DNA of 59,864 bases, filler included, from Sphacelaria rigidula (lineage: Eukaryota), in the NCBI GenBank assembly GCA_964200075.2. It is 9 parts of 9 records of this genome, joined end to end, with 100 filler letters (N's around TTAATTAATTAA, not from the genome) between each part and the next. Parts side by side here need not be neighbours in the genome. Positions count along the whole stretch, not along the records: positions 6,664 to 13,226 come from CAXNAA020019327.1; 8 more parts are not named here. One strand, written 5' to 3'. Of this stretch, positions 1-49,200 are shown in pieces. Position 1 is the first letter of the stretch; the number at the start of each line of letters is the position of its first letter. The translations under genes and the position numbers were made by a program. The notes under the pieces are model-generated. The model did not search any database, was not told the origin of the DNA, and saw only the letters and a list, made by a program, of their open reading frames with translations.

Positions 1-11
1 CGAAGGAGGTA

Positions 12-1043
12 ATGGTGGACATACGAAACAAGCGGTGCTCGCGCAAGGGCTGCTCGACTAAGCCTTGTTTTGGGCTCGAGGGCACCCGAACGGCCGAGTT
101 CTGCTCGCAGCATGCAAAGGATGGGATGGTGGACGTGTTGACCAGGCGATGTCGTCACGACGGTTGCTCTAAGCACCCTGCGTTCGGTTTGCGAGGTGGA
201 GGTAAGGCGCTCTACTGTCGAAAGCACGCCACGGATGGGATGAGAGCCGTGAAGCAAAGGTGTTACCACGAGGGCTGCTGGAAGTCACGGACCCACGGAT
301 GGAAAGGGTCCAAATCGCCGCGATTCTGTGCACAGCATGCCGAGGAGGGCATGTCTAATGTGGTGGCCAAAAAGTGCCTCCACGACGGTTGCTCCGTCCT
401 TCCTACGTTTGGACTCCCGGGCACCCGACAACGGCAGTTCTGCACCCGGCACGCCCTAGACGGTATGGTTCACATGGCGCAACGAAGATGTTCTCACGAG
501 GGCTGCAGTAAGTTCCCGTCGCTGGGGATCAAAGGAAGCAGAAAAGCGGAGTTTTGCGCACAGCACGCCAAGGACGGCATGGTGAGCGTGAGTGGTACGA
601 TCTGTTCCCACCCCGGCTGTTCCACACGTGCGCGTTTTGTTGCAACGGATGGCCGGAAGGGCAAATTTTGCAGTCTGCACAGACAGGACAGGAAGAGTGA
701 CGTAGGGGCGCGGACGACGCGCGCTCCCGGGCTCGGCCGTCATTCGGAGGAGCCGAAGACGCGTGCGGAGAAGGTGAAGCTGGAGATTGCTTCGCCGGAT
801 TCCGTAGAGAACGGTGAAGATTCAGGCGCTTTTGCCGGGATCAGAAAGCGTAAATCCGACCCGGCTGCGCCTGTAACGAGCGTCACCGTTGACGTACTCG
901 AGAGCCTTACTACGAAGCGAGTCCGCACGGCTCGTGCGTCTAGGGTGTCGGCGCGACTCGCCGCTCGGTCTCCCGAGGTTGGTGTCTCCCTTGCTGAGGG
1001 CAGAGCCAGCGTAAAGAGAGAGGTTTCTGTTTCGCGTCATTAG
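12..1043 (+). CDS. EsV-1-7 cysteine-rich repeat protein (six C-x4-C...C-x2-H repeats plus a basic low-complexity C-terminus); frame is open back to the window edge, so possibly 5'-partial
   Basis: 343-aa ORF with six ~38-aa repeats such as RCSHEGCSKFPSLGIKGSRKAEFCAQHAKDGMV, matching the EsV-1-7 repeat of phaeoviruses and brown algae. RKRK and KRVR are NLS-like. Confidence 0.9.
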   Translation: MVDIRNKRCSRKGCSTKPCFGLEGTRTAEFCSQHAKDGMVDVLTRRCRHDGCSKHPAFGLRGGGKALYCRKHATDGMRAVKQRCYHEGCWKSRTHGWKGSKSPRFCAQHAEEGMSNVVAKKCLHDGCSVLPTFGLPGTRQRQFCTRHALDGMVHMAQRRCSHEGCSKFPSLGIKGSRKAEFCAQHAKDGMVSVSGTICSHPGCSTRARFVATDGRKGKFCSLHRQDRKSDVGARTTRAPGLGRHSEEPKTRAEKVKLEIASPDSVENGEDSGAFAGIRKRKSDPAAPVTSVTVDVLESLTTKRVRTARASRVSARLAARSPEVGVSLAEGRASVKREVSVSRH

Positions 1044-1492
1044 GCAGAAGACGGCTCGTTATACAGCAGTATCATGGAGAGCGAGGGGCCCCATATCGGG
1101 AAATCCATGAGCTACCCCCTCACCCCCCCCCTTCCCAGCCGCGGTCGAGAATGAGGAGAATGCCAAATCCATTTGGGAAAAACCTCACTCTTCCTATTTC
1201 TCCACTAGGATACGGAATTGAACGATCATTTAGATATCTCCAGGTTCGCCTCAACGTGAGCAGTCCAAAACCGAGGAGTTTTGGTGTGTCAGTTGTCATT
1301 GTGGCGATCGGGGAGCAATGTGCCGGCTTGAAAATGACTTTGGGGTCGTGGTGATCACTGGATAATGAATGCCGAGTCCCGCTGGCTTTTGCAAGACCGG
1401 TTGTTATTACCGACTTGACACTATCCGATCGCAGTGATACAGCCGCCATGTTAAGGAGGGCGATGTACGACGAACAGTTCTGTACTGCCACT

Positions 1493-1855
1493 GTGTTTTG
1501 TTGTGTGTACTATTTCATATATTCTCGGCGCCGGTCAACATATATCGGTATATGTGGGCGCACCAGCCGGGGTCACACAGGAAGGTGAACACAGGAGCTT
1601 TTTCTTTTTCATTTGTTTTTAGTACCCCACCGTCTTTCTGCGGTGCATGCCTTTATTTTTTATTGCGAGAGGAGTTCAGCAGTCCCTTCCCCTGGTCGAC
1701 CGTGAGGTCGAATTTTGTATACCCACGACATGGTCGCTCTCCACTGTTGGACATTGTGTGAAAACAAATCTCAGATCGCTCCGAGAATTGAATCCACGAC
1801 CCAACTTTCAGAAGGTTCCGAGGTTACCAACTGAGCAACTTAGGCGACCGGGTTT
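1493..1855 (-). mobile_element. tRNA-derived SINE, family 1 (near full length)
   Basis: Minus-strand 5' head has A-box-like TTGCTCAGTTGG and B-box-like GGATTCAATTCTC. The body core GTGTGACCCCGGCTGGTGCGCCC recurs at ~2420, ~33840 and ~36390. CA-rich 3' tail. Confidence 0.65.
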
Positions 1856-2419
1856 ACTGAATGACTGGAACGTACATGCAGCACTCGTAAGTTGACTGTG
1901 TGGTGTTACCAGCCGATACGAAAATGTTCTGATATTACGGACGTGCACAATGTGCGAGTTGCAGAGAATGACGTACTTGACCCGCGTTTGGGCAGACAGC
2001 CGTGTTCGTACAACGCCTGTATCTACATATCGCAATTGATACTGCACTGCGATACACGAGAGGGAGAAGTTGCGAAGAGGAATGTTATGGCCGTGGCGTT
2101 GCAAAAAAGAATATCCAACATCGGGTTAGCGGCAGCTCCAATTTTCAAATTGGTTGTTGTCTCAGGCTATTCCAGATTCGGCTGTAGATTTCTGTGACAG
2201 AAAACACTCTCGTGTTTTTCGGCACACTTTTGACAAACAAGCAGAACTTTTTGAAAAACTGCTAGAACCATGACCTCAATGTCTTGAGTGCAGGCCAGTA
2301 GATTCAATACAAGATACTTTTGCAGTGGTGTATGGAGCAAAGACTACTACACTCAACGCCAGACAACGCGGCAGTATGCAGTGTTTTTTAGTTTCAGAAC
2401 CTGAACACGGACCTGCTGT

Positions 2420-2510
2420 GTGTGTGACCCCGGCTGGTGCGCCCACATATACCAAAATGTCTAGACCGGCGTCCAGGATGGATGAGTCGAGAACATACAC
2501 ACACGCACAG
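2420..2510 (+). mobile_element. SINE family 1, 3' fragment
   Basis: gtgtgaccccggctggtgcgcccacatatacc matches the reverse complement of ~1545-1580; ends in an ACAC tail. Confidence 0.55.
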
Positions 2511-2965
2511 TGTGCATACAAATGCCGCACAGCAGACAGCAGACAACCTGTAGCCTGCCGATGTGGGGGGGGGTGGTGTTGCTCTATTGCAGCGGAAGCT
2601 TCGAAACTCAACAACAAAGGAAAGAGGCAGATGTCCGCAACAGCAGCTGCCCAAAGTGGAGATGACTGACTAGTACCGGAAACAGAGCGCACACTACTGA
2701 CGGCCCGGAGCGGAAGGAAGAGATCGTTGATCGGGGTGGGGATGGGGTTATGGGCAGAGACGATCGGCTGCGTACATTTAGTCGGGGTGAGCCGCACGCA
2801 GCATGGTCTTACTCTGTGGTGTTTATGGTCTATGTTACCGTGCCTTCGTCGTTCGGATGGGATATCAGCCCGTACAACATGTTTATATACCATACTTTTC
2901 TCCGTTACATTGCAGTTTTGAGTACGTGTTCTTCGAAGTGAATTGAACTTAGTACAGCCTTGACC

Positions 2966-3485
2966 CTCGCGGGTTGTCAGCGTGTTGCTTCATTGTCCTT
3001 CGCTCGGCAGTATCATGGTAGCTCTTTACCCCATGAGAACAGCACAGGGCAGGGTCGATGGCGAGTGCGTTAAACTGTGTGTATTTTGCACAGACAGCGT
3101 TATCGCTCGCATTTCAGGTCTATGCATGCAGCGTGATGCGAGCAACACTCGCGATGCAGTACAGACTGCCCACGCACCCAAGACTTGAAGAGACAGGACC
3201 GTACTGACCGTACACACAAGATCACAAAATAAGCAGTAGTGCTACTGCTGTAGTATCTACAGGGCTTGGGAGCCTGGGCAGTCTGTACTGTATTCGAGTG
3301 CTGTTTGCAACATGCATGCAGACATGAACTGAGCTACATTGCTGCGCAGCCAACCTATATACAGAGTGTCTGTCAGCACTCGTCATGGACACTGCCCTAT
3401 TTTGTTCTCATGGGGGTAAGGGGTAAGAGCCATCACGCTACTGGCGAGCGAAGGATAATGAAGCAAAACGCTGACTGCCCGCGAG
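2966..3485. repeat. Degenerate long inverted repeat (arms ~2966-3182 and ~3265-3485)
   Basis: ctcgcgggttgtcagcgtgttgcttcattgtccttcgctc pairs with gagcgaaggataatgaagcaaaacgctgactgcccgcgag; gcagtacagactgccc pairs with gggcagtctgtactg. Confidence 0.75.
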
Positions 3486-3531
3486 CACCAGCAACGGCAG
3501 TGATGATGGCAGCCAAGCTATCACTACAAAC

Positions 3532-3830
3532 AGGGTTTTTGTGAGATTGAGGGTAGAGGATACGATTGAGAGTGAACAGCGGTCAATTAGTGCATTAACC
3601 GTTTCAGTTCCGGAATGCCCTTCCACGAGATCCAGTATGCTTTCTGTAGTGGCTTAGCTTGCCACTGAGGCCCTTGATATCCTTGAGTGTGATATTGATG
3701 TGCAGCTTGTAGCACACGCCAGTGATGGAGGGGAGAAAAAGCGCATACAGAATGAATAATTGGCTGGGTTGAAGCGAACGAATAAAGCCACTCCCAATCA
3801 GCGCTCACTCTCAATCTCATGAAAAAGTTT
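3532..3830 (-). mobile_element. Diverged MITE copy, same family as 5714-6019, opposite orientation
   Basis: Starts gtgagattgagggtagaggatacgattgagagtga and ends actctcaatctcatgaaaa; internal sequence is a diverged reverse complement of 5800-6000. Confidence 0.7.
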
Positions 3831-4429
3831 ACAGCCAATGAATACAATACAGTACTGTTTCGTGTACTCTTGTCCGTGCTTTCCTTTCAGTCAAGTACTA
3901 CCGTGCAGTGAAAAGCACAACCGTCACTTCTACAGTTAGTTACTAGTACAGCAAGGCGGTGTTCGTATCGATCGTCTTCCGTCACGCAGCCCACCATNNN
4001 NNNNNNNACGGACCGTACACCACGACACGACAGCAGAGTGCTGCGTCGATCTCGCGCGCCCCAGAATTTGAAATTATGCCTGTACACCTTATAGAAAACG
4101 ATGAGCACCGCGTTTCCAATTTTGACAGCGCGTCGATATCGTGACAAAGGCTACTTTGAAAATTCATGTGGAAAATCGCGCTGTTGAGAAACTGCTTTTC
4201 TGACAGCGTGTTTTTTATACATATGTAGCCTTGAATGTGGTCGAGATGATAATGATGTTGTGAATGTGACGTGTGGTGGGGAGAGCGCGAAGTTTTTGCA
4301 TTAGTACCATACTTATATACCATGGTCCTTCAAACTCACTAGTGTTTATTGCATCACCATCTTCCAGGATTTTCGAATTCATTGCATACTTGAAGTTTCA
4401 CCACTGTATGTGACGTGTTCATGACCTTT

Positions 4430-4720
4430 CATGTAACGTGTAACGTAACACATAACGTAACGTGTAACGTGTAATGGTCCATTACACGTTACATAAAACG
4501 TTTTATGTTACGTGATTTGAACGTTTGGGCAATTAAACGTTCACGTTACGCTACGTATGTCACGTGGAAAAAAAGTAGTGTTACGTGAACGTTTCACTTA
4601 AAAATTTAACGTTACGTTCACGTTACGTTCATCACGTTAGAAAAAAATTACGTTCACGTTACGTTTCGGCCAAAACGTAATGTGAACGTTACGTGTAACG
4701 CTGTGGCACGTGTAACGTGT
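4430..4720. repeat. Low-complexity array of quasi-palindromic GTAACGT/ACGTTAC motifs
   Basis: Many interspersed gtaacgtg, acgttac and gaacgtt motifs on both strands. Confidence 0.7.
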
Positions 4721-4874
4721 AGACCCCAAAAAAAAATTAACCTGACCCACAATCTTTTGTTAATTATGCCTTAGAGAGCGCCTACATAAGATTTCAATAC
4801 ACAAACACCAAACGGGGGCCAGTAACTGGTCTTCACAATACTGTTCCGAATTTCTTTTGACCCTGTCACTAAAC

Positions 4875-5144
4875 GGCCCATTATACGGTCAATACTTGGA
4901 ATTGGACCCTGAGATTTGGTACGGACAATGAGTAGGGCATAATAAAAAATATTACTGGCGTACACAAGTTTTTGTTTTTTTTCATGAGTTAAGGGTAATA
5001 ATCAGTTTTCAGATATCGGTAAAAGGCCCCTGACTCATGAAAAAAAAAACTCTCGTGTACGCCAGCATTTTTTTTTATTATGCTCTACTCATTGTCTATA
5101 CCAAATTTCAGGGTCCAACTCCAAGTATTGCCGTATAATGGGCC
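4875..5144. repeat. Hairpin-forming inverted repeat (~120-bp arms, ~30-bp loop)
   Basis: ggcccattatacggtcaatacttggaattggaccctgagatttgg pairs with ccaaatttcagggtccaactccaagtattgccgtataatgggcc. Confidence 0.85.
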
Positions 5145-5259
5145 TGCAAACTGCAGCATCGTTTTTCGGCTGGCCCAGCTCCTAAGTAAATACTCATAAA
5201 CGATTGTTTTTTTTAATTCCACCTAGTCGCTGCGCTAAAGCAGGAACACCATGACACCC

Positions 5260-5700
5260 TCCTGATAAACGGGGTCTTTACCCGGTATCGCCTCCACTAC
5301 ACCAACTTGGGCGATTGTGATTTGAGCACGGTTTGCCTATTTTGCCGAAATTATCGACGCTAGCACTTTCGAGTGCTCATGGAAATTGTTATGCGAAAAC
5401 AAAACGAAATTAGGCCATCCGCAGAAAATGCCAGACTGAGGTCTGTGCAGTATAGGAGGGAAACACGGTCTCGATCGTTATTGTGAAGACATTTTCACGT
5501 CTTCATTTATCTGAATATATGCCGTTTCGTCGCTGAAGAACGGGAAAACTGCTTATATTGGACCAAGAACGGTTAATAACACCGTCCTGATAAACGGGGT
5601 ATCAAGTCCGTAGCGCCCCCAAAACACCAACTTGAGCGCTGCAGTTTGAGCGCGGCCTACGCTTTCTCCCCAAATCTACCGGCGCTAGCACTTTCAAGTA
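5260..5700 (+). repeat. Diverged ~115-bp direct repeat (5260-5375 and 5586-5700)
   Basis: Both copies read cctgataaacgggg...acaccaacttg...cgctagcactttc. Confidence 0.65.
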
Positions 5701-5713
5701 GTAGTGAACAATG

Positions 5714-6019
5714 AACAACGTTTTCGTGAGATTGAGAGTAGAGTACTGATTGAGAGTGACCCCGGTAATTCGCTTTAACCTACGAGTAGCAAATTTTTCG
5801 TTCCGTATGTGCTTTTCTTTGCCTCTATCACTAGCGTGTGCTCACAGCTACACGTCGATATCCTACTCAGGGCTACCAAGGGCCTCAGTGGCGAGCTGCT
5901 ACAGAAAGCATATCAGGCCTCGTGGAGAGGCATTTCGGAACTGAAACGACTCATTCACTCATTGACCGCTTTTCACTCTCATTCGTATCCTCTACTCTCA
6001 ATCTCACGAAAACGTTGTT
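5714..6019. mobile_element. ~306-bp MITE with ~30-bp perfect terminal inverted repeats
   Basis: AACAACGTTTTCGTGAGATTGAGAGTAGAG at the left end, CTCTACTCTCAATCTCACGAAAACGTTGTT at the right end; non-coding; second copy at 3532-3830. Confidence 0.85.
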
Positions 6020-6563
6020 AATAGTACTCCAGCAAAACTAAAAAAAAAAAAAAAACTACGAGTTCTGAAAACTTCTGATGCTGACTACTGTACACTTGAA
6101 CACCCAGTTAATATGATGTTGTCCATGCCGCAGCAACAGCCATCAACTATCAACATATTTTTGTTCAAGAAATAGCCCCGAAGAAGTACCCCAAGAAGAA
6201 ATAAATTCACGATTCCCTGTAGTTTGAAGCAAAAAACTTATCGCCGCCTACGTTTACAGCATCCTGCCTTATAGAGTACAGTACAACAAAAGAAGTGTGA
6301 TCGGTGTTGGACTCACTTTTTATGGCAACGAATCTCGAGTTGTAAAAATATGGGGATTTCATTCCGTCTACAAGCGATTTTCTGCCGTGGATTGATTTTT
6401 CGGACTCCAGTCGGTTGGGCGCAGTGTTTCCAGGGATCTGCACGGATTAAGAATAAATCCGCGGAGCGGATTATTACGGTGCGGTTTGTCAATCCGCACC
6501 GCTCCGTGGCACTTGTAGGGGGCGGATATCCGCTCCGTGACAATTAAAAAAAAACGCTCCGCT

Positions 6564-6663
6564 NNNNNNNNNNNNNNNNNNNNNNNNNNNNNNNNNNNNN
6601 NNNNNNNTTAATTAATTAANNNNNNNNNNNNNNNNNNNNNNNNNNNNNNNNNNNNNNNNNNNN
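6564..6663. other. Artificial 100-nt linker (N44-TTAATTAATTAA-N44); same linker at 13227, 19890, 26553, 33216, 39879, 46541 and 53203
   Basis: Stop-in-all-frames linker recurring at 6662-6663-bp spacing. Confidence 0.97.
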
Positions 6664-6962
6664 AAGCTCAGAAGGCTTGGCTAGCAAGCTAGTCCCGGGC
6701 TACGTGCGATCGACGCTAGCATGAGCAGCCGCCTGCGTCAGGGTTTGAAAGAAAGACGGACGGTAGTTTTACGACTATGTCAAGATTATCGTGGACTGAA
6801 CCAACTTCTTGAGTCGTACAGCGGCAGCTGGAGGGATATGTAGACCATGTATAGTGGGCTAGCAGAATCCAAGTACTCTAGGAGTGTTGATTTAGCGAAT
6901 GGGGTTTTCAGTTGAAGTTGGAGGAAGTATTTTGGAAGCCAAAGAGTTCGTAGAAGTGATAC

Positions 6963-7750
6963 GCTGATGCGGACTGGACGGCGTTGGATTGTGTTGGAGT
7001 ATATCAGATTGGAGAGGGAGTCAGGCTGGTACATACGAGTCCGGGGCACGGTTCTTTCCACAACCTTGTGGAAGAAGTGCAGCCACAAGTGTTGGTAGGG
7101 GATTCAAGTCGGGTTGCACCATTCGAATGGGCCGAGCCGGAGTCAGCATCAGCCAGTGCCGTCAAAAAGTTGGTCGAGTCATTCCTCTCACCAACCTCTG
7201 TGACAACGCTGATCTTTGAGAGTACTGCTGTGATGGTGCGCTCTCCTGGTGAGAACGAGCTCGTTGCTCCGTGTTGAGCGGAGCTGGGGGTCTCACTGAG
7301 CAGGCCTCAGTATCAGCCGTGCAGGTGGGCGCACCGTATCGGAAAAGGCGGACCTATGTGGTCGCCTTGAAAGCTGATCGTCGGAGGGAAGGACAACTGC
7401 GAGCGTGGAAGCAGCGAGTGAAAACGTACACCGTCGTCTGCCCCACGTTGGGTTAGCGATTAGGGCGGACAGGAATTTATTTTTCTGGTGCCGACAGGAC
7501 AGGGAGAGGCGATTCACACTTCCGAGAATCCGATGCCCATATTATTTCGTTCTCAGCTGACGAAGGGAAACCCAAGGCGCGAGGAATCCAGACCCCGTGG
7601 AGCGGACGAAGGTGGATACGAAGAAGCAGTCGAGCTGAAAAGAGACGATTTCGTGAAAGTTGCGACTACTCTCGACTGTTACGAGATACCACCCCGTGAA
7701 TTAACGACACCATACCAAAGGTTGTGGCTAATTTCGTTCACCCGTAGATG
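6963..7750 (+). pseudogene. C5 cytosine-DNA-methyltransferase-like domain remnant inside Ty3/Gypsy pol
   Basis: Ordered motif-like blocks: ADADWTALDC (II/III-like), QPQVLVGD (IV-like, no PC), LIFEST (VI-like), LSGAG.LTEQASVSAVQVGAPYRKRRTYVVAL (VII/VIII-like), ELKRDDFVKVATTLDCYEIP (IX-like). Frameshifted; recognised by eye only. Confidence 0.5.
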
Positions 7751-8043
7751 ATGAAGGCGGTTCCATCAAGTGGAAGCGGAAGTTTTGTTCAGCCTGACTC
7801 ATATCCAGGGTGAGGTTGAGGATTTGAACACGCTCGCTACGATGTAGCCTCGTGACGAAGCAGAGTTACCAGAGGCTTGGGGAGCCGCTGTAACTCGTTC
7901 GTCGGTTCAAGAGGCAGAACGGGAGTCAGACCAAGACCCTTGTGGGGGGGAGGCTCCACCTGAGGAGCCACGGATACCAGGTAAAGGTAGCCCTCAGACT
8001 GTTTTCGAGCAGGCGAGAGCGATTCTGATGAAGAGCAATGCTA

Positions 8044-8279
8044 CGGTAGGGGGTGCACTTTTTTCGCGAAATTTGGTCTGGTTCAGGGGCTCCTTACGAC
8101 TCTAGATGCACAAGAATACGGGTCAGGGTATCCCCGTTTGCAGATTTATTCGGGATATCCCCAGCACATTGGAATAGTAATCCTGGTGTACTCTCGCATA
8201 TTTTTTTCACTCGTGTTTTGGATGAGATAAGGGGCTCCTAACAATTATAATCTCAGAATTTATTTCTCTACCACTACCG
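8044..8279. mobile_element. 236-bp Tc1/mariner-type MITE inserted into the family A pol
   Basis: TA|CGGTAGGGG...CCACTACCG|TA: short TIR with a TA duplication. Removing it restores the pol frame ILMKSNASITLNKQRL. Confidence 0.65.
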
Positions 8280-9759
8280 TAGCATCACTCTGAACAAGCA
8301 GCGACTAGCTGCAAGAGCGGGACTCCCGGCTTGAGGCTATCAGGGATAGGTAAATGTTGGAGAAAAGGCCGAAGGTACAGGTAGGAGGCAGGAAGCGTAC
8401 GTTCCAAAATGATGTTCTTGTATGGTATACCTCACCTAGGGCGCCAGGTAAGTTGGATACTAAGTAAGTTGGCTATTCCACGCAGTCTAGTGCCTTGCCT
8501 GCTCGCGTAGGTGCACACTACGCATGGGTACGCCGGAGTGATGAAAACGACTGTAGGGGTCAACGCACGCTATGAGTGCCCCGGTCTTTTCGCCGATACT
8601 CGCACACACGTGCTGTCTTGTGGATGTCACCGACGCAAACGTACTAATAGTCGCACCATAATGGTGCGACCCGCCCGCTTCTTGTAGTTCTGGGAGATGA
8701 TGTAGATGAACATATCGGACATAAAGCAGACTTCTACTTCTGGTAAAACGTACTTGTTGGTTGTTATGGATCGAGCAACCAAGTTCTCTTTGCTCTTTCA
8801 CTAGCAGCCCAAGGTTACTGAGCACGTAGTTAAGGGTCTGCTGGAACTGTTCTTGATGCTCGAAACGCCCTATTTCCTTTGAAGTGACGCTGGGGGGGAG
8901 TTCGGTTTAGCCGAGCTATGTGAGCCGTGTCTATAATGGGATGACGAGTATGTGTATCCTGCTGTATGGATTCACCATACTACTTCCGACCAGTCACTGC
9001 CGCATAGCTCAACGCGATTAATGCTGCTTTTGAGCGTGTGCCTGGCACCCAAGTCGACTCTGTGTCACCTGAAGCAGAATCCCTACCGTTGAATAACACG
9101 GTAGAGCAACAGCGACAAACATTGAAGGACTTTCATGAGCTGTTAACCCAAAGCCACCGGGGTAGGGAAGAGGTATAAAATATGATGCTAGTCAAAGAGT
9201 CTGACAGCTCCCTTCTGAACGAAGATGTACCGGCCAAATTTGTACATGACTTATAGACTGGGCCGGGGACGGTGCAGCAGGGGGTGGTACCAGGTCTCAA
9301 TCTTGAGGTCAAAATGCAGGTGCGTAAAGTACAAGAGCGAACGGTATTCGCGGCCAACGTGGAGAAATTTCATGTACACCTAGAACAGCTGCAGCATTCA
9401 GGTCCAGGCGAGGTCTGTTAGCTAGCTTGGGAGGGCACATTTAGGGTCGGCTGAGGACATCACGTCCACACCTCTACTATATACTCTGACGGATGGGAAA
9501 GCAGTGCTGAGCCCAGGATCGTCGTGAGTGTGGGAACATCAACGATTGTTTCACGACGGAGCTGAACCACGCTGGCTTTCAGAGGAGAGGTTTTGGACAG
9601 TTTCATTGAGTTACAGTTGGACGTGTTTCATGTCTTGTGGGAATTATATCAACCGCAGACCAGGCCCCGTCCATCCGATACACCATCTCGAGCAGAGAGG
9701 GGCTTAATTGCGCGGTAGATTCCCCGATGTACCAAGATCCGCAAACGGTTTACGGACAG

Positions 9760-10130
9760 CCTAGAGCGGTCAACAAGACCAGGGACTTCTCCGGATTGGA
9801 TGGGGTCGTTTCTGTACGGTGTTTAAATTCCCTACGTGGTCTAACCCGGCAGAGCGGTCAACAACATCAAGGACTTCTCCAGACTGGATGGGATAGTGTC
9901 TGTACGTTGTTTAAATTCCCTACGTGGTCTGACCCGACAGAGCGGTCAACAACATCAAGGACTTCTCTAGACTGGATGGGATCGTTTCTGTACGGTGTTT
10001 AAATTCCCTACGTGGTCTAACCCGGCAGAGCGGTCGACAAGATAAAGGACCCCGCTCCTGGGCGGGATAGAATCGTTCTTGCGCGGTGTTGAAATGCCCT
10101 ATGCGGTATAACCCAGCAGAACGATTTTCA
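9760..10130 (+). repeat. 88-bp tandem array (~4 units) between pol and the PPT of family A
   Basis: aaattccctacgtggtct recurs at 9825, 9913 and 10001, with a diverged unit at ~10092. Confidence 0.9.
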
Positions 10131-10248
10131 AGATCGACGGCTACACCAAGACGCTGAGTACTCGGGAAGAGGGACATGGTAACGCGGCGATCCATCGTGT
10201 GAACCACGTTCAGTCCGAGGGTTTTTCAACCCTAGGACTGAGTGGGGG

Positions 10249-10853
10249 TGTTACGGATCGCGGCGTGGCGTGGTGGTAAGGGTAGTACGATGATGGGCCG
10301 TCGATTCAAAACGACTTAAACGCCCGGAGGGCTGACTGCGGGAGCTGGCTAGTACCGCAGTCAGGGGTGAGGCGTTATGTAAATCCGTCGAGAGACGGAA
10401 TACATAAACATGCCTCTTTACATCTGGTTGTATCCGGTTCTTTCCGAGGACCGACCCAATCGGGTGCACCCTGGCGTCCACTCCTTTTCGGAAGTGCGAA
10501 GTCTCGACACCACCAATGAGAGAAAGAGAAAAGAAATCGGCCTTGATCTGTGACCAGGCATATCGTGACGTTCGTCCTGTATCATTCTACGTTGGACTTA
10601 CCCACATGCTGTGAGCTTAAGATTGTTTCAAGAGTAACGGTGAGACAGTAAGATGTTTGATTCCAGCAGCGAGCAGATGCTAGAAGGTTGACATGATAGT
10701 AAATTTGAACTGTGCCAAATGGAATGGTGCAATGTGTAACCATATATAATAGTAAAAGAAAGTCATATTTGCATGAGCTAGCAAAACCTCGTAACCTGCA
10801 TGGCCGAAATGCTATTGTTGTTCGCTCTAGTACTCGACTTGTACAGTAGAGAC
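10249..10853 (+). mobile_element. 3' LTR of family A (right boundary approximate)
   Basis: Starts TG directly after a G-rich PPT; aligns along its length with 18149-18769. Confidence 0.75.
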
Positions 10854-10869
10854 ACGCATGTGGACGACC

Positions 10870-13105
10870 ACTGTGGACAACACTATTCCGTTTGTATCAT
10901 AGCCTCTTGCACATGTGGTACCAGCTGCCGCCACACATGCGCGACATCAATTTTGACCTTCATGGGCCCGGCTGGGAACCGGCAGTCATCCAAGAACTCA
11001 GTGATGTCCTGCTATAGTACCAAGACCGATTTTCCCGATCCAAGACGGATCTTGGGCATTGCAAAACACTGCTCTTTGAAGCTACCCTCCAACCCGGCGT
11101 CTCGCCGATTTCTTCTCGGCCATACCGTACCAACCCAATCCTCACCAAGAAAGTTAACGTCATCTTGGATGCGTTTTTGGGAGCGGGACTAATGCAACAT
11201 TCCTCCTCTCCTTGGGCCTCGCCGCTTGTGGTCGTCCCCAAAAGGATGGAAACATACGCATCACCGTGAATTATCCACGGTTGAACCGCGTCACTGTCAT
11301 CGGTAAACTTCCGATTCCCCGCATTGATGAAGTCTTCGACTCCTTAGGCGAGGGCAAAATATTCAGCACCTTCGACCTCGCTTCTGGATTTTTTCAGAAT
11401 GCTATACACCCTGACACAGTCTCACTGACGACTTTTTGCACCTCGTCCAGACTCTATGAGTGGCTTCGCATGCCACGAGGCGCCACCACTGCCCCGGGAT
11501 GCTTTCAACGCTTAATGCAACGCGTCACCGAGGGCCTCGAGCACATCATCATGTACTTGGATGACGCTATCGCTTTCGATGCCTCACCTTTTGCACATAT
11601 ACGCACTCTACAAGAATTTCTCTCTCGCCTACGTACGCACGATTTGAAACTGTCTCCATCCAAAGCTCACCTTGGCGCGACTGACTTGGATTTCTTGGGA
11701 TATTCCATTTCGCCAGCAGGTATGCATCCGGATACGAACAAAGTCAAGGTGATGACTGATTTGCCGATGCCAACTAACATTTCTCAACTTCGCTCATTGT
11801 TGGGTGGGCGTTCCTACTACCGCAAATGTTTGCCGAATTTATCGCGACGGATTCGCTCCCTTACTGAGCTACTCAAGGAAGGAGCCGTGTTTTCTTTCAC
11901 CACCGAAATGGAGACTATCACCCGCGAATTACTCAAGACGCTTACCGAAAAGCCCGTACTACGCTTTCCTGATTGGGAGGCAGTACAAGATGGCTCCCGC
12001 CTTTTCCAACTCCATACTGACGCCAGCACAAATGGATTTGGAGGAGTTTTGAATCAATCTCAGCTTGATGGCTCTGTCCGACCCATCCTATATATCAGCC
12101 GCGCTACCCTGCCCAACGAGGCCAATTGGAGCCCGCTAGAACTGGAAGGCGGAGTAATCACTTGGGCCATTAAGCACCTTCGACAATATCTGTTTCACGT
12201 GCCCTTCGAGATCTATACGGATCACGGAGCACTTGAACACCTCGCTAAGGTTGGTGAACACAACCCTCGTGTACAACGATGGTTGGAGTTTCTAACAGCA
12301 TACCAGTATACCATTAAGCACCGTCCAGGCAAAACCAACGGGAACGCGAATCTTTTTTCCCGCCTGCCTCTGACGCCTACGGCCGCAGATTCCAGCCCAG
12401 CTTGCCGTTTAACGGAACCCGATGAACCCGGAATGTACGCGGTCCGACGTGTTTCAACGCCCCTTTACGCCCTCGACGTCCAGTGCCCGGAAACAGGTGT
12501 GCATATGGGAGGACCTCGCCCTCTACCATATGACGCCGTCTTGGGTGGGTTAAAACCCACTACCCCCGATTCTGTTGATTTTCGCACTTTCGGTACTCGC
12601 GCGAAACTCTTCGCGGAGACACCCCCAGTCACCCACATTATCTCCGACAACACGCCCTCCCGGTCCGCCACCCGCACCACACCGAGTGCCCCGCCGCCAC
12701 CAACAACACCTTCAACCTCTATGAGCCACCCAGCACAAGTTCCACGGACCAACACGCAAAGCTCCGCAAAGACTTCAGCACCGTGCGCCACGCGCCGCGA
12801 GAAATCTCCGCCGCGCATTGATACAACCCCGCCGCCTATTATGGCGCCGCAAACGTCTTCTGCTCCCGAGACAGATATTGACGACGGCATTTCTGCCCCG
12901 TCGCCTGTTCCCCCGCCGCCTGCCCTACCATGTTTGGTCGGCTCGCCAGCGGAAGGCCAACTACGCGAGTTTCTCGCCAGCTACTCCCACCGTGATTGGG
13001 CTCGCGAACAAAACGCAGAACCGCTATGTCGCGCAGCCATTCGGTACATACAACTTGACTGTCCAGTCCCTTTTCCGTCCACACTTCTGGCCCCGGTTGG
13101 GAGTC
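10870..13105 (+). mobile_element. Ty3/Gypsy pol fragment, family B (RT, RNase H, Pro/Thr-rich linker)
   Basis: Frameshifted upstream part SSRPYRTNP...SSSPWASPLVVVPK leads into ORF 11212-13185. Truncated at ~13105 by unrelated sequence. Confidence 0.93.
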
Positions 13106-13185
13106 GTGCTACGATAGGGTTGCACTTTTCTGTTCACGTGATGCCAAAACTGGATTTAACAGCCGATTCTCGAAAATGGGGTTGA
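11212..13185 (+). CDS. pol: Retrotransposon reverse transcriptase-RNase H ORF (partial, probably non-functional; last ~25 aa unrelated)
   Basis: RT motifs FDLASGFFQ, YEWLRMP.G and YLDD; RNase H motifs LHTDAS, LELE, IYTDH and RPGKTNGNANLFSR. Confidence 0.9.
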   Translation: MGLAACGRPQKDGNIRITVNYPRLNRVTVIGKLPIPRIDEVFDSLGEGKIFSTFDLASGFFQNAIHPDTVSLTTFCTSSRLYEWLRMPRGATTAPGCFQRLMQRVTEGLEHIIMYLDDAIAFDASPFAHIRTLQEFLSRLRTHDLKLSPSKAHLGATDLDFLGYSISPAGMHPDTNKVKVMTDLPMPTNISQLRSLLGGRSYYRKCLPNLSRRIRSLTELLKEGAVFSFTTEMETITRELLKTLTEKPVLRFPDWEAVQDGSRLFQLHTDASTNGFGGVLNQSQLDGSVRPILYISRATLPNEANWSPLELEGGVITWAIKHLRQYLFHVPFEIYTDHGALEHLAKVGEHNPRVQRWLEFLTAYQYTIKHRPGKTNGNANLFSRLPLTPTAADSSPACRLTEPDEPGMYAVRRVSTPLYALDVQCPETGVHMGGPRPLPYDAVLGGLKPTTPDSVDFRTFGTRAKLFAETPPVTHIISDNTPSRSATRTTPSAPPPPTTPSTSMSHPAQVPRTNTQSSAKTSAPCATRREKSPPRIDTTPPPIMAPQTSSAPETDIDDGISAPSPVPPPPALPCLVGSPAEGQLREFLASYSHRDWAREQNAEPLCRAAIRYIQLDCPVPFPSTLLAPVGSRATIGLHFSVHVMPKLDLTADSRKWG

Positions 13186-14660
13186 AAAAAAAAATGAGGT
13201 TCAACTCAAAAGCCGCGCTTTCCCTGNNNNNNNNNNNNNNNNNNNNNNNNNNNNNNNNNNNNNNNNNNNNTTAATTAATTAANNNNNNNNNNNNNNNNNN
13301 NNNNNNNNNNNNNNNNNNNNNNNNNNGTATGGCCATTTTTTCGGTGACACTTTTAGCTGGTTTTGGGGGGGGGCTATCGTAGAAGGTGTCTTGAAACAAA
13401 AACTTGCCCTCACGGGTGAGTGCACAGGATCGAAATGTGAAAGCCGATCGTGCAAGGAACTGTGAGATGAGACAGCTTCATGCTTGCTTTATAGCCGTGA
13501 CAGGTCGAATCTTGTCGTGTAGACCTGAATGAGTAGAGTCACGGTGGATGCTAGGATTGCATGACTCTCTAAACTGCTTTGCTAAATCTTTCCATGCAAC
13601 AGCTGCTGTGTGCTTCCTGCTATGTGATGTAGCTGAAAATAGCAACACAACACTATGCCGTCTTCACCCATCAATCTTGTACTTACTGTATTTACCATAC
13701 GGGAGTTTTCATCACGTTTGCACACCAGAAACGGCATGGTGCATGCACACGAGGTTGACAGTAAATATCAGTTGAACTCTTACTAATTCGAGTATAATAT
13801 ATCTTCGTGCGCCGCTGGACGGACTAACGTTAGACTTGTTCACAACTGACGCTGCTGTTGCTGTACGCTATGATTTTTGGAGTTTCATACAGCCCAAATG
13901 AGTCGCGTCGTGCAGCACGAAACCAGCTCTAACGGCATTTACAATCATCGCCTCAATGCTCTTTTTTGGCCGGTTCGGGGGGGGCTATCTCGGCAGCAAT
14001 CTACAGCTGACTGAAATGGAACCACGGTACAATAATATATATGCTGCTCCACACATACTCAAACTCGACAAGACCAGCCGAATTCAAAATCGCTTGTGTC
14101 TCCACACATTGAGTTGCGATAACACCCTTGGGTTGTACGACATGCTACCGTTTTATTTATTGTGATGCTGTTACAATATGGCTGTACGAGATGACGGTAC
14201 TGACTGATTGCGGCCTGCACCATCTCCTCGATGAAATCGTTCACTTTGTACTCAGTCTAACAGTACATGAGTAATGTTCTTTCACTGTGGGAACAAAACT
14301 GTTCCGAATCACCATCGAATATCAAATGTCGGACTATGCATGCGGAAGAACCTCTGCCGTGTACTGTCTATTCGAGACTACATACTGTAGGGACACATGA
14401 GGTAGTAATGGCCGTGTTGCCTGAGTGAAACTACTCAACGCGATATCAACCAGCAGATGGGAGTTAACGAACTACCTGCAGAAAAGATACATAGGAGCTA
14501 TCGAGATGTTGTTGGCTACAACTAGTAACGAGTACAGCATATACTTTCAGGAACACGAACCACTTGCTAGAGTATCTCATGCATGGCCACGGATGCAACG
14601 GTGAAAGAATGTCATTTTCACTCTCTATATACTTCGCAAATTCACGAAACTGCTCGTGCG

Positions 14661-17149: not shown

Positions 17150-18769
17150 CAACAGTTGTGGGTACAAGCTGAAGTTTGGCACCACAGCAAGAGTAGCCAC
17201 CGCTCACCAGTAACGGTTTTGCTGGACACCGGGGCAGGGGGGGGAAGCTATGCATCAAAGCAGTGGTGGAAGTCTTTGGTGATTTGGGGGAATATGTCGG
17301 GCAAACTACAGCGGCAAGGAGCAGGATTCCTGAGGGGCAGCAAACCCTAGTGACAGCAGGACGCCGCCGATAAAGATTGTGGGGTTAGCTGAGGAGATCA
17401 TGACCGTTCCGCAACTGTATACAATGACAGATAAGAAAGTGGTGTTAGGATCAGGATCGTCCTGGGAGTGGGCCTATCGGGAGTTGTTTCATGACGGAAC
17501 CGAGCCCCACTGGCTTTCAGAGAAGGAAGTTTTGGACAGTTTCACTGGGCTACAGTTGGACGTGTTTCATGCTTTGTGGGAACTATAGAACCCGCAAACC
17601 AAACCGCGCCCATCCGTTAACCCATCTCGACCGGAAAGAGACTCTTTCGCTCGGGATGAAGCTTTGCGACTCATTCCTCGAGGGACCAGAACACGTAAAC
17701 AGTTTGTGGACAACCAAGGTGAGCGGCAGGACTTCAACGGGGAAGTATTCGACTTCCGTCAGCCGTATTACCGTATCAAGAATGAGGATGGGGATTGGGA
17801 AGAGATGACGCCGTCGGAGGTGCGGGAAAATGCGGTGAAGGAACAGGGTACCAGGGCCGCTCCAGGATCTAAATAATGGGGAAAAGGGATCGTTCTGCAC
17901 GGTGTTTAAATTCCCTACGTGGTCTAACCCGGCAGAGCAGTCAACAAGATCAAGGACGCCTCCGGACTGGAAGGGATAATCCTGCACGATGTTTTATTTC
18001 CCTTCGTGGTCTAACCCGGCAGAACGATTATCAAGATCGACGGCTACACCCCGACGCTGAGCACTCGGAAGAGGGACATGGTAACGCGGCGATCCATCGT
18101 GTGAATCACGTCAGTCCCAGGGTTTTCAATCCTAGGACTGAGGGGGGGTGTTACGGATCGCGGCGTGATACGGTGGAAAGGGGGACAGTACAATGATGGG
18201 CCATTGATTCGGAACGAAGATACGCGCCCGGAGGGCTGATCACGGGAACTGGCTAGTACCTGCGGTCAGGGGTGAGGATGTTGAGTAATCCGTCAAGATA
18301 CGGAGTACATAAACATGCCTCTTACATCTGGTTGAATCCGATTCTTTCTAAGAATCGGTGCAATGCTATGGTGCCCTGGTGTTCAGAGCTTCTCGAGAAG
18401 GCTCTGGCTATCAACACCACCAAGGAACGAAAAGAAATCGAATCACCTGAAGCTGTGAATAAGGATATCCTGACGATCGACGTGTACTGTACTGCGTTGG
18501 ACTGTCTCCCCACGTGCTGTGAGCTTACGATTGTTACAAGATTAACGGTGAGACGGTTTGGAGCTTGAGTACTTTATGAACAGATGTGAAAGGATCGACC
18601 TGTAGTAAATGAATATGAACGAACTCGTGCACAAATGGATGGCGGTTAAATAATAAGTAGAGTGGAAGGTCCCACCCGAAATAGTGAAATTTCGTACTCG
18701 TTGACCGAAGTTTTGTTATTTGCCTAGGTCAGCGATCAACCTGTACTGTAGAGTCAAGAAACGTTGACA
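17150..18769 (+). mobile_element. Internally deleted family A Ty3/Gypsy copy: protease joined to integrase C-terminus (chromo-like plus Tudor-like), two 88-bp units, PPT, 3' LTR 18149-18769
   Basis: Aspartic protease VTVLLDTGAGGGSY (~17210-17250). WEWAYRELFHDGTEPHWLSEKEVLDSF is homologous to 9525-9650. PPT ggactgaggggggg then TGTTACGG; the LTR ends cgttgaCA. Confidence 0.85.
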
Positions 18770-20490
18770 ACAGTTGGAGACTGTCGTTCGCTTGCATCAT
18801 GGCGCTTCTCACCGGGACTATTGTGTTCGATCACATCATCTGCGGTGCGGCTGAAGCCAGGAGAGGTAAAATGTTCAGGAAGATGTTCACTGAGATATTC
18901 AATTTTCACCACCCCGCCATAAGTTAGCAAGGGTTTCACGTGACAAAGCAAACGATCAGCCATCATAATGCGCGCTAGGTGATGCGCGCTGGGAGCGACG
19001 CGCTCGTGCTCACGCTTACGACGTCACAAAGGTAATCAAGATACGGAGACCACTATAATGGTTCCCACCGCGCTTGGGTAAGGTGAAGAGACGCAAGCAG
19101 TCTAATCATTCAAAATAGTCAATGTACTCTTGACCATGACAGATACCCCGCAAAAATAACTGCGAGATACAATGCTGGTCAGGCGAAGATTTCAATTCTG
19201 CCGCGTACGTACGGAATGAGTGAAGTGTAATTCGTTGCCTCAAGCAACAGCGGGCAAGAGCTTTGCTTTTATCATGAAACGCGTGCAGAACTCCACATGC
19301 CATAACATCAATTAACGAGATTATCATCCCAGGATCATAAACCGAACAACGCACAATAGAGCAAGAGAAATGATAGCCTGAACCGGAAGCCACAAAAAAA
19401 AATGCACTTGCGAAAAAGATGCTTCAAGATAAGACAGCTGCTCAGGCGGGAGTTTACGTTCGTCGTGCGTACTGCTGTAATGAGCGGAGATTGTAAATAC
19501 CCGCCAATGACTCGAATCAGTGGGCCCATATCCATATAAATAACAGTACGGTTTCAGGATAGTGTATGTCGACTGAGACTCAACCGAAATATGAATTTAT
19601 ACATGAGCTGAGGCTACGAGATGAACCTCAAGACTAAGGTCCGGCCCGGGGTGCTTGCACCGCTTGAAGATGCGTGTCCACAACGTTAGCGTAGCGATAT
19701 CGCTCACAGCGTGACTTCGGAGGTGGCTATGCGCTAGTTCTGTGCGCGATGCCATCTGAGTAAAGTAAAACGGCGTGCCGCCCACGCAGTTCGATTCGAT
19801 GCTCTTACAGTTCAGAGTCAGAATCTTCAGCTATTAACAGGGTTGCCAGAAAAATGAGAACGTATTTTGAAATGAGAATCAACCGCTCCNNNNNNNNNNN
19901 NNNNNNNNNNNNNNNNNNNNNNNNNNNNNNNNNTTAATTAATTAANNNNNNNNNNNNNNNNNNNNNNNNNNNNNNNNNNNNNNNNNNNNCCACAAGCGCA
20001 ATGTGGCGTTTCTCAGGCCTCGCCGCCACGATCAGTGGATCGACAGCCAAGGTATATGAGCACCGGTGATAGCTGTGTGCGTTGTGTAAGCTCATGGACT
20101 GAGCACGGTAAAAAATCTGGATCATGGACACTTTTATTTAGTGAAATTGATGCCACGTCAACAGATTGCCTAATTTTCGCTGTCAAATGGTTGATGGAAA
20201 GCGGCGAGAGAAAATTGTCGTGCCTTCTGACTGTTTCATGAGCATGATGCCGGTTCGATTTTCAAAAAAACTTCTTGTTTGTTTCGTTTTCAGCCCGAAG
20301 AGCAACATGGATGATGAGTACGTACGAAGGCTCAAAACAACGCATCACAATCAAAAGTGAACCTGAGGAACTGACCGCCCCCGCAAACCAAGAACCCATA
20401 TAGTGGCAACGAATTTGACCATTTGACCGCCATGATGGGTCATCTGTTGTTAAATCGGCATCAGTTACTTGGACGGTGAAAGGGTCACAA

Positions 20491-46640: not shown

Positions 46641-49200
46641 AGGCTACACAGCAAGGGTCATCATCCACAGGATGTCCTTGTCTCCTGGTCATCATCCAGG
46701 ATCCTACACATGCTATATCTACTACGCCTTGGTGTATTCTGGCTACAAGACGGAGGTCATTCGCGTACGCCTCGAAGACTCCAGGTCTGAGCATGAGTGG
46801 GCTGACACCTTCTGCCCCGAAAACGGCGCCCGCTGGCTTGCCCCCTCGATTCCTCCTCTTGCTTTCTAGGGATGCCAACACCAATGTAAGAACCGTATGT
46901 AGATAGGGCCTTTCCCGTGTGACGGGCCCCCGCAAAAATGTTGCCGCCGCACCGGAGCTCACCGCCCCCCCATTTGTTTTGATTGTAGAAGTACGCGATC
47001 TCATTCCTAGTAGAACGAGAGTAAACGAAAATGAAAATTACGTTTTGTTTTTTCTTTCCCGCCAAGATAAGGCGCGAGAACAATTAGCTGAGCCTACGTG
47101 CCGCGCAGTAATACTTCACCTGTTCCAGAATGGCTCACTTGTATTCCCCTCTGCGGATATCCTCGAACCCGTCGGACGGCGCCGGGCACCCATACAGGAT
47201 AAAGTTGTTGAGCTGGCCGCAAAAGCAGACTGCACATGGATGGTGACGGCACTGCACTTTTAATCCGCAAACCCACGCGGACACCTCAGTCAGACCGTTC
47301 TCCCGGTAAATATGTTCGACTACTCGGTCAAGAACCACTTTGCACGTACGTGTCGATGCTGCTGCGAACATGGGTCCTGCACGAGTGCAATTCCAACATT
47401 TCGACCGATATGGTACCAATTCGGACGACCTAGTTCATCGAGCGATTCTACTGGTGGGTAGATATCGACTACAGTGTCCGTTGGTGGGTACGTCGTTGTT
47501 TGATTTGTCAGGCCCGCAAGACGTCTCCCCAGACTGTGCGTTGACCAATCATGTCCACATCGCTCCCCAATGGGCCCGGTGAAGTTATATCTTGGGACTA
47601 TGTTGAACCGTTGCCGCTCATGAAGAGTAGCAACAAGTGCTTTTTTTTTATGACTGATCGATCCAGTTGTCACTCCGTCATGCATGCCGGACCTCCGGAA
47701 GTGTTGTCCGTCAATGGCAAAAATTTTCCCGGCAAACTTTCTACTGCGGTCAGTACACCACTGGGTTCCCACCATCGCATCTTTGTAAGTCCGTACCACC
47801 CCCAAACGAACGATGGAACGGAACGTGTCAACCATACGGTGGCGCAAATGCTGTCAATCGTCATAAACGGACGGCAAACAGATTGGAATCTGCATCTGCC
47901 TTTATTCCAACTGAACTACGACATATCGGTCCACACCGCCACCGGCCTTGCACCAAATGAAATCCACATTGGTCGCATGCCGCGGCTGCCGTTGACCATA
48001 CTCGAGCACCGCAACGTGGGCGATCACCAGAGTTTGGACCGGGATATCAGGGAGAAGGCTTTTTGAGTCATCGTCTGCGGTTGGCATATGATTTGGTACG
48101 CGAGAAAAACCAAATGAATTTGGCAAAAGCGATCAGTGCCAATACCACGTTGGATGCGGTGATGCATGAGCGCCCAGTGTGGAAGGTAGGTGCGTGGGCG
48201 TGGGTGTACAACGATGTACAGACAATTCGCCAAGGAGCCAGCGGGGGTAAAGATTCGACGGATAAGGTGTTGAAGGCCAGGCTATCCCTCACTTGGGCCG
48301 GGCCGGGGAAACGTTTGGGCATTGGGCCAAGTGCTACTGCACCGGATGATCGACCCATCGGGGAAAACCTTGTGTACCTCGATTTCCCCAGGCATGAGGC
48401 TGGGCCTTCGCAGAAACACCGCGTGTCTGTCTGGCGCTGGAAACCTTGCATCGCCCGGCACGAAACCATTGATATGCCCAAACAATTGTCGTTAGGACTC
48501 AGCCAGTACGTATTGACGAGGCACGCCACCAAGTCGCCGCCTTTTCACGTCACGGCTAAAGACGTTCACGCCCCTGTGGAACGCGTGGTAGGCGATCATA
48601 TCAGCGGACATCAACTGGCCCGCGGTCGTGGTGGTAAAATAGCAGTGACGTATCAGACGCACTGGAAAGGATTGATGCGGGTCACGTGGGAACGGGAATT
48701 TCACTTGCGGCATATCCGTAGACAAACTTTGTTGTACTGGGTAGGCGATGTTGCGCAACAACGCCCGTTGAACCGAAGATACAGGTCCATGCGGAAGGGC
48801 GCGGTGGCTCGGGAGCTAGCCCAGGAGCATTCGGCCCGGTTCGTCATGGCTGACGATAGCCTTGTTTCGCGTGCACAGTACTTGCTTTCTTTTCGCAGGA
48901 AACGTCTACCGAAAGGCGCGTACTTCTGGTACAAGGAGGAGGACTCACTCTGGTGCCTGGGCAAGATTCACTCACCAGCACCCGACTCCGACAACTCCTA
49001 CTACATCCGCTTCCTCGATGACCCCGGCCCCCTGTAGCTCATTTCAGACGATGCTTACTACACTGAAGCGCCGTCCGCTCGCCGCGGGTCCTGGTGTCTC
49101 CAGCGTCATGACGACGGCAAAATAGACGACGCTTTTCTCCGGAATACCGACAATTCGTGGAAGGAAGACGAGTTTTGATGCGTTCTGTCCTACTTCCCCC
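46641..49200 (+). mobile_element. Degenerate Ty3/Gypsy integrase region related to family B, with chromo-like and SH3/Tudor-like C-terminal segments
   Basis: AREQLAEPTCRA resembles AREQNAEPLCRA at ~13000. YWW...VRRCLICQARKT zinc finger; ISWDYVEPLP; SPYHPQTNDGTERVNHT; LSLTWAGP (GPY/F); YQTHWKGLMRVTWERE (chromo-like). Confidence 0.9.

Follow-up and report, generated by a model that had tools for sequence, protein, structure and literature searches.

Retrotransposons carrying a DNA cytosine methyltransferase (DNMT) domain have been described from Symbiodinium, in long interspersed nuclear elements (LINEs) and DIRS elements, and from Klebsormidium, in Gypsy elements (PMC5890265). Here a decayed Ty3/Gypsy-type retrotransposon in a stretch of DNA from Sphacelaria rigidula (GenBank assembly GCA_964200075.2) is compared with them; between the remains of its reverse transcriptase (RT) and its integrase lies a domain whose center is probably related to the cytosine-C5 DNMTs. 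In KnitGypsy-Dnmt3 of Klebsormidium nitens (de Mendoza et al. 2018, PMC5890265), a DNMT-type domain likewise sits in the Pol of an algal long terminal repeat (LTR) Gypsy element and is under purifying selection. Both Pfam and phylogeny readily identify that domain as a Dnmt3, its key residues are conserved, and its ratio of nonsynonymous to synonymous substitution (Ka/Ks) is below 0.2 (PMC5890265), whereas the one considered here is not recognized by profiles, has lost the catalytic residues, and gives a signal in only ~80 codons. SymbioLINE-Dnmt and SymbioDIRS-Dnmt3 are also retrotransposon-borne C5-DNMTs, present in hundreds of copies in Symbiodinium; they differ in being part of a LINE ORF1 or of a DIRS element with a tyrosine recombinase, in having conserved catalytic positions, and in that de novo CG methylation has been demonstrated for them, in a heavily methylated host (PMC5890265). 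De Mendoza et al. (2018) recognized retrotransposon DNMTs by a position inside the coding region of the element and by conserved catalytic residues; the present domain, inside Pol, has the former and lacks the latter.

Other non-canonical domains fused to Pol are described from a stramenopile alga, Ectocarpus, whose Gypsy elements carry chromodomain, Tudor, and NADAR domains with a proposed role in integration guidance or chromatin interaction (PMC12477816). These resemble the present case in kind and differ in position, being at the integrase C-terminus or the Pol N-terminus and not between RT/RNase H and integrase. In the parts of that account drawn on here, no cytosine-methyltransferase-like Gypsy domain is reported, the sole case given being an N4/N6 methyltransferase gene carried by a Sola1 DNA transposon (PMC12477816). 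A 2025 survey places DNMT3 in DIRS elements and in LTR elements of the Copia type, and speaks of DNMT1 in brown algae that branch early (PMC12344493); methylase-encoding retrotransposons of stramenopiles are also mentioned, in general terms, in an opinion paper of 2019 (PMC6338049). A search of the full-text literature turned up no account of a Gypsy Pol with a DNMT-like domain that has lost catalysis; that search did not extend to supplementary files, such as curated Ectocarpus Gypsy models. Among host genes, DNMT3L and Dnmt3b3 are catalytically inactive DNMT paralogues that partner active DNMT3 enzymes. The likeness would be that in both cases a DNMT fold, having lost its catalytic residues, is retained for a function other than catalysis; the partner enzyme is theirs only, none being known here.

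The window (the whole stretch of DNA analyzed, 59,864 bases) consists of nine 6563-base pieces joined by N44-TTAATTAATTAA-N44 spacers at eight places (6564-6663, 13227-13326, 19890-19989 etc.). The locus under study is in the second piece, at 6664-13226 (record CAXNAA020019327.1), and the neighborhood considered is limited to these positions because the pieces are not adjacent in the genome. On balance, and with modest confidence, we read the locus as the decayed pol of a very abundant Ty3/Gypsy-type family with an old, selected, non-catalytic domain of ~290 codons, the central 80 of which would be a remote C5-DNMT derivative. The lineage would carry this accessory domain (6896-7790), neither RT nor RNase H, between RT and integrase; the central codons (7161-7403) would derive from the part of a C5-DNMT catalytic domain that runs from the helix before motif VI to motif VIII; the domain would be old and kept by purifying selection alongside the integrase, as an integral part of Pol and not recent cargo; and in the window copy everything from the RT palm to RNase H would have been deleted, so that RT motif A abuts the domain. 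The parts of this reading are not equally firm. That there is a conserved, selected, non-RT domain in front of the integrase is well supported by the sequence comparisons, and a C5-DNMT origin, resting on the central 80 codons, is probable. Coordinates are collected in Table 1.

Table 1. Features read at the locus, in window positions
Feature	Position	Strand	Remarks
RT N-terminus remnant	6685-6912	+	fingers, spanning RxCxDYRxLN through motif A (DLxxG); frame 1, interrupted by an in-frame stop at 6844-6846
Domain, N segment	6896-7160	+	frame 2 (6896-6964, G-rich, ..VGGSIL..), then frame 3 from 6960 (DADW.., GVRLV, QPQVLVGDSSR)
Domain, middle segment	7161-7403	+	helix before motif VI; TLIFES aligned with ENV; G-A-P-Y-R-K-R-R aligned with motif VIII; frame 3 to frame 2 at ~7253-7277
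Domain, distal (C) segment	7404-7790	+	frame 2 to 7453, frame 3 at 7464-7696, frame 2 at 7700-7810; stop at 7745-7747
Linker to integrase	7791-8384	+	broken by a small insert of very high copy number; P0006 and P0007 extend out of the C segment into the linker
MITE-like insert	8032-8291	.	~260 bp; 21-nt terminal inverted repeats
Decayed integrase	8385-9100	+	N-terminal extension; H2C2 zinc finger ~8475-8639; catalytic core ~8700-8906
Candidate 3' LTR	10249-10853	+	TG...CA ends; from reading the sequence; no second LTR inside the piece

The original prediction was of ~260 codons of frameshifted non-pol sequence between an RT/RNase H remnant and the integrase. Non-RT coding sequence is indeed found there, inside a Ty3/Gypsy-type pol, and is longer than predicted (~290 codons, ~6896-7790). 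The remnant upstream is RT, reduced to the fingers; no RNase H was found in it, and no palm, thumb, or RNase H is recognizable between the fingers and the integrase, either by Pfam in read-through frames or by profile comparison. Against a better preserved RT-RNase H in the same piece (11158-13185), the family profile downstream of 6912 has Z-scores of -1.05 (N segment), -0.72 (middle), and -0.19 (distal), without a match, and RT homology therefore ends at motif A. Motif I, proposed to have been deleted, may not simply be missing, as the start of the domain at ~6896 lies in a G-rich stretch in frame 2. The five peptide blocks first noticed were all found in plus-strand translations: ADADWTALDC, QPQVLVGDSSR, and TLIFESTAVM in a frame-3 open reading frame (ORF) at 6960-7274, LSGAGGLTEQASVSAVQVGAPYRKRRTYVVAL in a frame-2 ORF at 7253-7453, and ELKRDDFVKVATTLDCYEIP in a frame-3 ORF at 7464-7748. 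Their reconstruction across frames 3, 2, and 3 was right, since one relative (P0001) spans all three blocks in a single open frame.

A phmmer search of 1.84 billion cluster representatives with the read-through of 6960-7751 found 11 proteins at E <= 0.001, of which five reached E <= 1e-10. The 11 are uniformly short (73-226 aa) and come from small Logan or ENA contigs; among them is P0001 (226 aa, E 4e-25). The first frame change is crossed by P0009 and P0011, the second by P0002 and P0006, and the third by P0005-7; the C segment is homologous to P0001, P0002, P0005-7, and a metagenome contig, L008, described below. Most of these proteins stand alone, with nine of ten relatives' clusters holding only the query and that of P0010 having three members. 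No longer protein relatives of the middle block or of P0001 were found, a similar-length search with P0001 returned only itself, and there was no long polyprotein relative; a scan with one alignment of the family (A3) found no locus in metagenome or viral contigs.

Logan contigs from four host or "algae metagenome" runs, mapped to 6664-9100 at >= 80% identity, numbered 11448, 8298, 9879, and 3526, and covered all 30 bins. The junction of RT and domain at 6912 is bridged by at least seven contig pieces among the 32 listed of 32 + 33545 (e.g., 6671-7045, 6706-6990, and 6747-7047), and others of the 32 tile 7111-7413, 7277-7634, 7376-7732, 7702-7982, and 7899-8030 joined to 8370-8657. With the phmmer relatives, thousands of contigs, and L008, the domain is common to the whole family, which refutes the alternative of a private insertion in this copy. 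Contigs of other copies also span the three frame-change sites without gaps (among those listed, X1 record 5, X3 records 12 and 13, and X4 record 18), and no indel is listed there at a share of >= 10%; P0001, P0002, P0005-7, P0009, and P0011 read through these sites. We infer that the bulk of the window's subfamily has the RT deletion and the frameshifts in common; it must therefore have multiplied non-autonomously, with proteins from other elements. Judged by its sequence, the window copy itself is dead, being RT-deleted and frameshifted, with in-frame stops and a MITE-like insert, and no function is left at the locus. Its value is as a pointer to the family.

A distant relative, L008, is a metagenome contig of 1893 bases, found with an alignment of the N segments and ~50% identical in nucleotides to the window in the aligned parts. 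It has an N segment, a C segment, and an integrase, in that order. Its N segment is 50% identical to P0010 and carries LDCGGGGS, DQDWRALEC, and GDACRW. The whole middle, DNMT-like segment is absent: the N segment ends at GDACRW, there is a frame change, and what follows is the beginning of the distal segment (~425-490), a copy-specific deletion of ~110 codons. P0003 and L008 have common non-RT sequence upstream of the G-rich start, where the window has RT motif A, which fits a deletion in the window's subfamily.

The ratio of nonsynonymous to synonymous differences per site (pN/pS) between the window and L008 comes to 0.54 over 49 codons of the N segment and to 0.56 over 74 codons of the C segment, with 0.45 and 0.47 for two parts of the integrase; these ratios are rough, since protein-guided alignment pushes pN down. 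Identities at codon positions 1/2/3 are 0.51/0.67/0.37 (N), 0.55/0.55/0.34 (C), and 0.56/0.67/0.30 and 0.53/0.60/0.26 (integrase), third positions being the least conserved throughout. Of 300 neutral simulations at equal nucleotide identity, none reached the observed protein score for the N segment or for either integrase part, and 9 did so for the C segment. The similarity outlasts the saturation of synonymous sites (pS 0.75-0.88), which makes long constraint at the protein level likely. Taken together, the figures argue for purifying selection on the N and C flanks much like that on the integrase; it counts against the reading of the domain as a whole that they cover N and C only, L008 having no middle segment.

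For the DNMT likeness there are two lines of evidence, both concerning the middle of the domain. In an ESM Atlas features search with P0001, PF00145 clusters were returned in 30 of 30 matches and no RT cluster was; the top score was 0.93 (155 of 256 features shared, recognition 3142), to be read against the 4-10% of shuffled proteins in which a first match >= 0.9 arises. The result carries weight because the family returned is the one that had been proposed beforehand. The second line is a profile-profile Smith-Waterman comparison written for this analysis, with an HHsearch-type column score and column permutation as the null, against a DNMT profile of seven sequences (Dcm and six phage DNMTs). 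The family scored 3.8 at gap setting 4/0.5 (2/300) and 2.4 at 3/0.3 (8/300); with L008 added, these became 4.2 (0/500) and 3.05 (4/500). The optimal path, with just two small gaps, places the helix before motif VI on its counterpart, ..LI.E.. on ..LLENV.., and G.PYRKRR.YVVA on GVPQNRER.FIVG. Thus the pairing with motifs VI and VIII that had been made by eye was recovered, at near-identical spacing, by the permutation test. A run of hmmsearch --max with the DNMT profile put motif VIII on the same residues, at E 0.009 for a search space of one sequence and ~0.1 over 13 sequences. As controls, forty further E. coli proteins reached at most 13.5 bits, and four of the seven DNMTs 13.6-17.9 bits. 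Before these tests, 6896-6964 and 7748-7810 (misplaced by MAFFT) and the first seven residues of P0005 were dropped, the tails of P0001, P0002, and P0006-P0011, judged frame-shifted, were trimmed, and P0012, 99% identical to P0010, was excluded.

The flanks tell less. By eye, the N segment can be read as DNMT motifs I, II/III, and IV without the Pro-Cys, and the C segment, with ELKRDDFVKVATTLDCYEIP and VANFVHP, as motifs IX and X; the order and spacing of these matches (a G-rich loop, D.D..A...V..N, ..VLVGD.., ..VANFVHP..) are attractive, as a lead only. The assignments of motifs II/III, IV, and IX found no backing in the profile permutation. The by-eye reading of the flanks was given no weight because RT motifs also fit some of the same residues by eye.

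A good deal weighs against a DNMT origin, beginning with the targeted comparisons themselves. The 155 shared Atlas features fall short of the 170 or more usual for true family members, and an Atlas search with the C segment (P0006 residues 1-125) gave no usable match. In the profile comparison, three looser gap settings gave no signal; three of the seven DNMTs scored like controls (9.2-11.9 bits); and the N and C segments scored like permuted columns even when restricted to motifs I-IV or IX-X, the C segment having Z-scores from -1.2 to -0.6. The signal is confined to one segment, whose limits were chosen after the alignment had been seen, and the DNMT comparison set is bacterial and phage only. 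None of the standard tests gave a DNMT match. PF00145 was absent by Pfam from the nine window pieces, the 11 relatives, and four L008 ORFs (E up to 10) and from six read-through frames (E up to 1), so that the profile check suggested with the original prediction, on the repaired translation, gave no match. The family profile searched against 177,635 PDB sequences had DDB1 as its top hit (E 0.067) and no DNMT at E <= 10, and single-sequence PDB searches were blank for DNMT. Probabilities from hhalign were 0.1-0.4% against E. coli Dcm and against Dcm with six phage DNMTs, in several set-ups, with other, non-significant registers favored. AlphaFold2 models from shallow alignments were too poor for use (predicted local distance difference test, pLDDT, 57.5 for P0001 and 43.3 for P0011), and Foldseek of the P0001 model against the PDB found nothing at E <= 0.001; the structural check, too, thus yielded no match to the C5-methyltransferase fold, from models that are unusable. 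We attribute to chance a weak PDB match (E 0.2) between 7464-7600 and a retroviral protease.

It could accordingly be that the domain is real and conserved and its DNMT likeness a product of chance or convergence, in which case it would be a Pol domain of some other origin, possibly with a Rossmann-like alpha/beta fold. We consider this rather unlikely, and of the alternatives it survives best: every standard homology and fold test is blank; the signal occupies ~80 of 290 codons and appears only under our own scoring at the stricter gap costs; the registers preferred by hhalign differ; the L008 N segment, searched as a single sequence, matched a flavoprotein, a Spo0A receiver domain, and carbamate kinase in the PDB; and motif reading by eye is flexible enough for RT motifs to fit the same residues. 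On the other side, the language-model search returned, 30 times out of 30, the one family among thousands that had been proposed in advance, and the permutation test found the very pairing of motifs VI and VIII first seen by eye, with 47 unrelated controls and RT at background.

A strongly diverged RT palm and thumb with RNase H, the usual content between RT motif A and integrase, would be in the right position, on the same strand, directly after motif A, and of roughly the right length, and TSPG..SF.NLV and VLVGD can be read by eye as RT motifs B and C. We regard it as improbable; an attempt to see RT motifs B-E and RNase H in the stretch by eye was abandoned, the profile comparison with the RT-RNase H at 11158-13185 being blank.

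If the central codons do come from a DNMT, the residues needed for catalysis have gone. At the by-eye place of motif IV the window has GDSSR and its relatives GDAS, GDTS, GDAT, EDAS, or RDAS; a Cys without Pro occurs only in L008 (GDACR) and P0011 (GNGCR), and Pro-Cys in none of the nine sequences covering the place, so that its predicted absence holds for the window and for all relatives that cover the site. In motif VI, whose alignment to ENV is backed by the permutation test, the Glu is kept (FES in the window; LEC, VED, and LEF in relatives) and Asn-Val lost, with an intact ENV in none of five covering sequences. In motif VIII, G-A-P-Y-R-K-R-R stands on G-V-P-Q-N-R-E-R, with Pro and the last Arg kept, Gln lost, and the first Arg replaced by Lys. 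QxRxR, ENV, and Pro-Cys are intact in no member examined; each of these members has other residues in place of Pro-Cys, of the N-V in ENV, and of the Q in QxRxR, and DNA methylation is therefore not expected of the domain. Between the two explanations offered at the outset for the missing residues, decay of this copy or a dead fold kept by the family, the second fits better, with the residues gone in every relative and the flanks under selection; the part of it that names the fold has no profile or structure match to PF00145 behind it.

A further alternative, that a non-autonomous element recently picked up part of a host or viral DNMT gene and carries it as neutral cargo, would suit the non-autonomous, pseudogenized state of the window's subfamily and the fragment-sized extent of the DNMT-like core. 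The order N, middle, C is preserved, however, among relatives from two other collections with 25-50% amino-acid identity; the codon-position bias and pN/pS of the flanks are like those of the integrase; and the catalytic residues are missing in all lineages. The domain is apparently old, and the capture first envisaged for this LTR family, if recent, is about as improbable as a diverged RT. The least probable alternative of all, that intact members encode a highly divergent and still active cytosine methyltransferase, can point to the Glu of ENV and an Arg of motif VIII being kept, to the Cys at the by-eye motif IV of L008 and P0011, and to LDCGGGGS at the by-eye motif I place of L008, but Pro-Cys in none of nine sequences and an intact ENV in none of five speak against it, and the retrotransposon DNMTs shown to be active keep their key residues (PMC5890265).

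In the remainder of the pol, the RT fingers lie upstream of the integrase on the plus strand. In the read-through frame of the window, Pfam finds Integrase_H2C2 at E 0.0028 (~8475-8639) and rve at E 0.11 (~8721-8906), both below the Pfam cut-offs; in L008 both are above them (H2C2 7e-14, 52.1 bits; rve 4.7e-9, 36.9 bits), and two parts of the integrases align at 51% and 35% identity. By sequence, then, an integrase with an H2C2 zinc finger and an rve core, as expected of Ty3/Gypsy, is present, weakly in the window and clearly in its relative. The linker is interrupted by an insert whose ends form an inverted repeat (8032-8052 and 8271-8291, 86% complementary). Summed contig depth in bins 7976-8303 is roughly 10 to 100 times that of the flanks, joints skip 275-277 bases, and contigs of other family copies join 8030/8032 to 8308; the excess depth, the skipping joints, and the 21-nt inverted ends show an insert like a miniature inverted-repeat transposable element (MITE) that is missing from other copies of the retrotransposon.

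No further copies of the domain were found in the other eight pieces (blastn, tblastn, hmmsearch). The sole similarity to the third piece is 3' non-coding (9978-10649 vs. 17886-18557, 80% identical). More widely, 9444-10649 matches 17382-18557 there at 75-80% identity, over the 3' non-coding part and part of the candidate LTR; there is no pol-like coding similarity upstream of this match, which could represent either a solo LTR or a copy that has been truncated. A tandem array (9763-10120) with ~4 copies of an 88-bp unit (84-90% matches) is found between the integrase and the candidate 3' LTR. Farther downstream, at 11018-13185 on the plus strand, is the second, better preserved Ty3/Gypsy RT-RNase H (Pfam RVT_1 8.6e-19, RT_RNaseH 1.5e-27), which at 11158-13185 was read by Pfam in read-through frames and belongs to a separate element from the one that carries the domain; it is followed by ~200 codons of a proline/serine/threonine-rich linker and then the start of its integrase. 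Truncated at its 5' end, this second element adjoins the first element's candidate LTR, an arrangement that points to nested insertion. In the eighth piece there is a weak RT-like ORF (46907-47260, plus strand; phmmer E 6.9e-06 to the RT at 11158-13185).

To return to the preferred reading, a domain without methyltransferase activity in front of the integrase could be a DNA- or chromatin-binding module that takes part, for example, in target choice. A weakness of the account is that we infer this binding or targeting role purely by analogy, because of the chromodomain, Tudor, and NADAR domains of Ectocarpus Gypsy elements. A more far-reaching version, which we put forward tentatively and would not count on, is that a stramenopile-algal Ty3/Gypsy lineage carries, in this alga and in the sources of the metagenome relatives, a complete, catalytically dead C5-DNMT fold before its integrase, kept by selection for tens to hundreds of millions of years. 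Reading or binding DNA or chromatin, such a pseudo-enzyme would direct integration or dampen host silencing; it would also be a relic of cytosine methyltransferase in hosts from which 5-methylcytosine (5mC) may have disappeared.

The retrotransposons with active DNMTs, in dinoflagellates and a charophyte, have been taken as showing that mobile elements can write host epigenetic marks. Retrotransposon DNMTs as such are known; what would be new, if the family-level reading is true, is a DNMT-derived pseudo-enzyme domain kept in a Gypsy Pol. It would be a case distinct from the carriers of active DNMTs, in which an enzyme fold has been repurposed to serve the element's own integration or survival. 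Among the accessory domains of algal Gypsy elements it would form a new class beside chromodomain, Tudor, and NADAR, one missed by routine annotation, and it could help to date cytosine methyltransferases in a lineage where 5mC has been reported to be low or absent.

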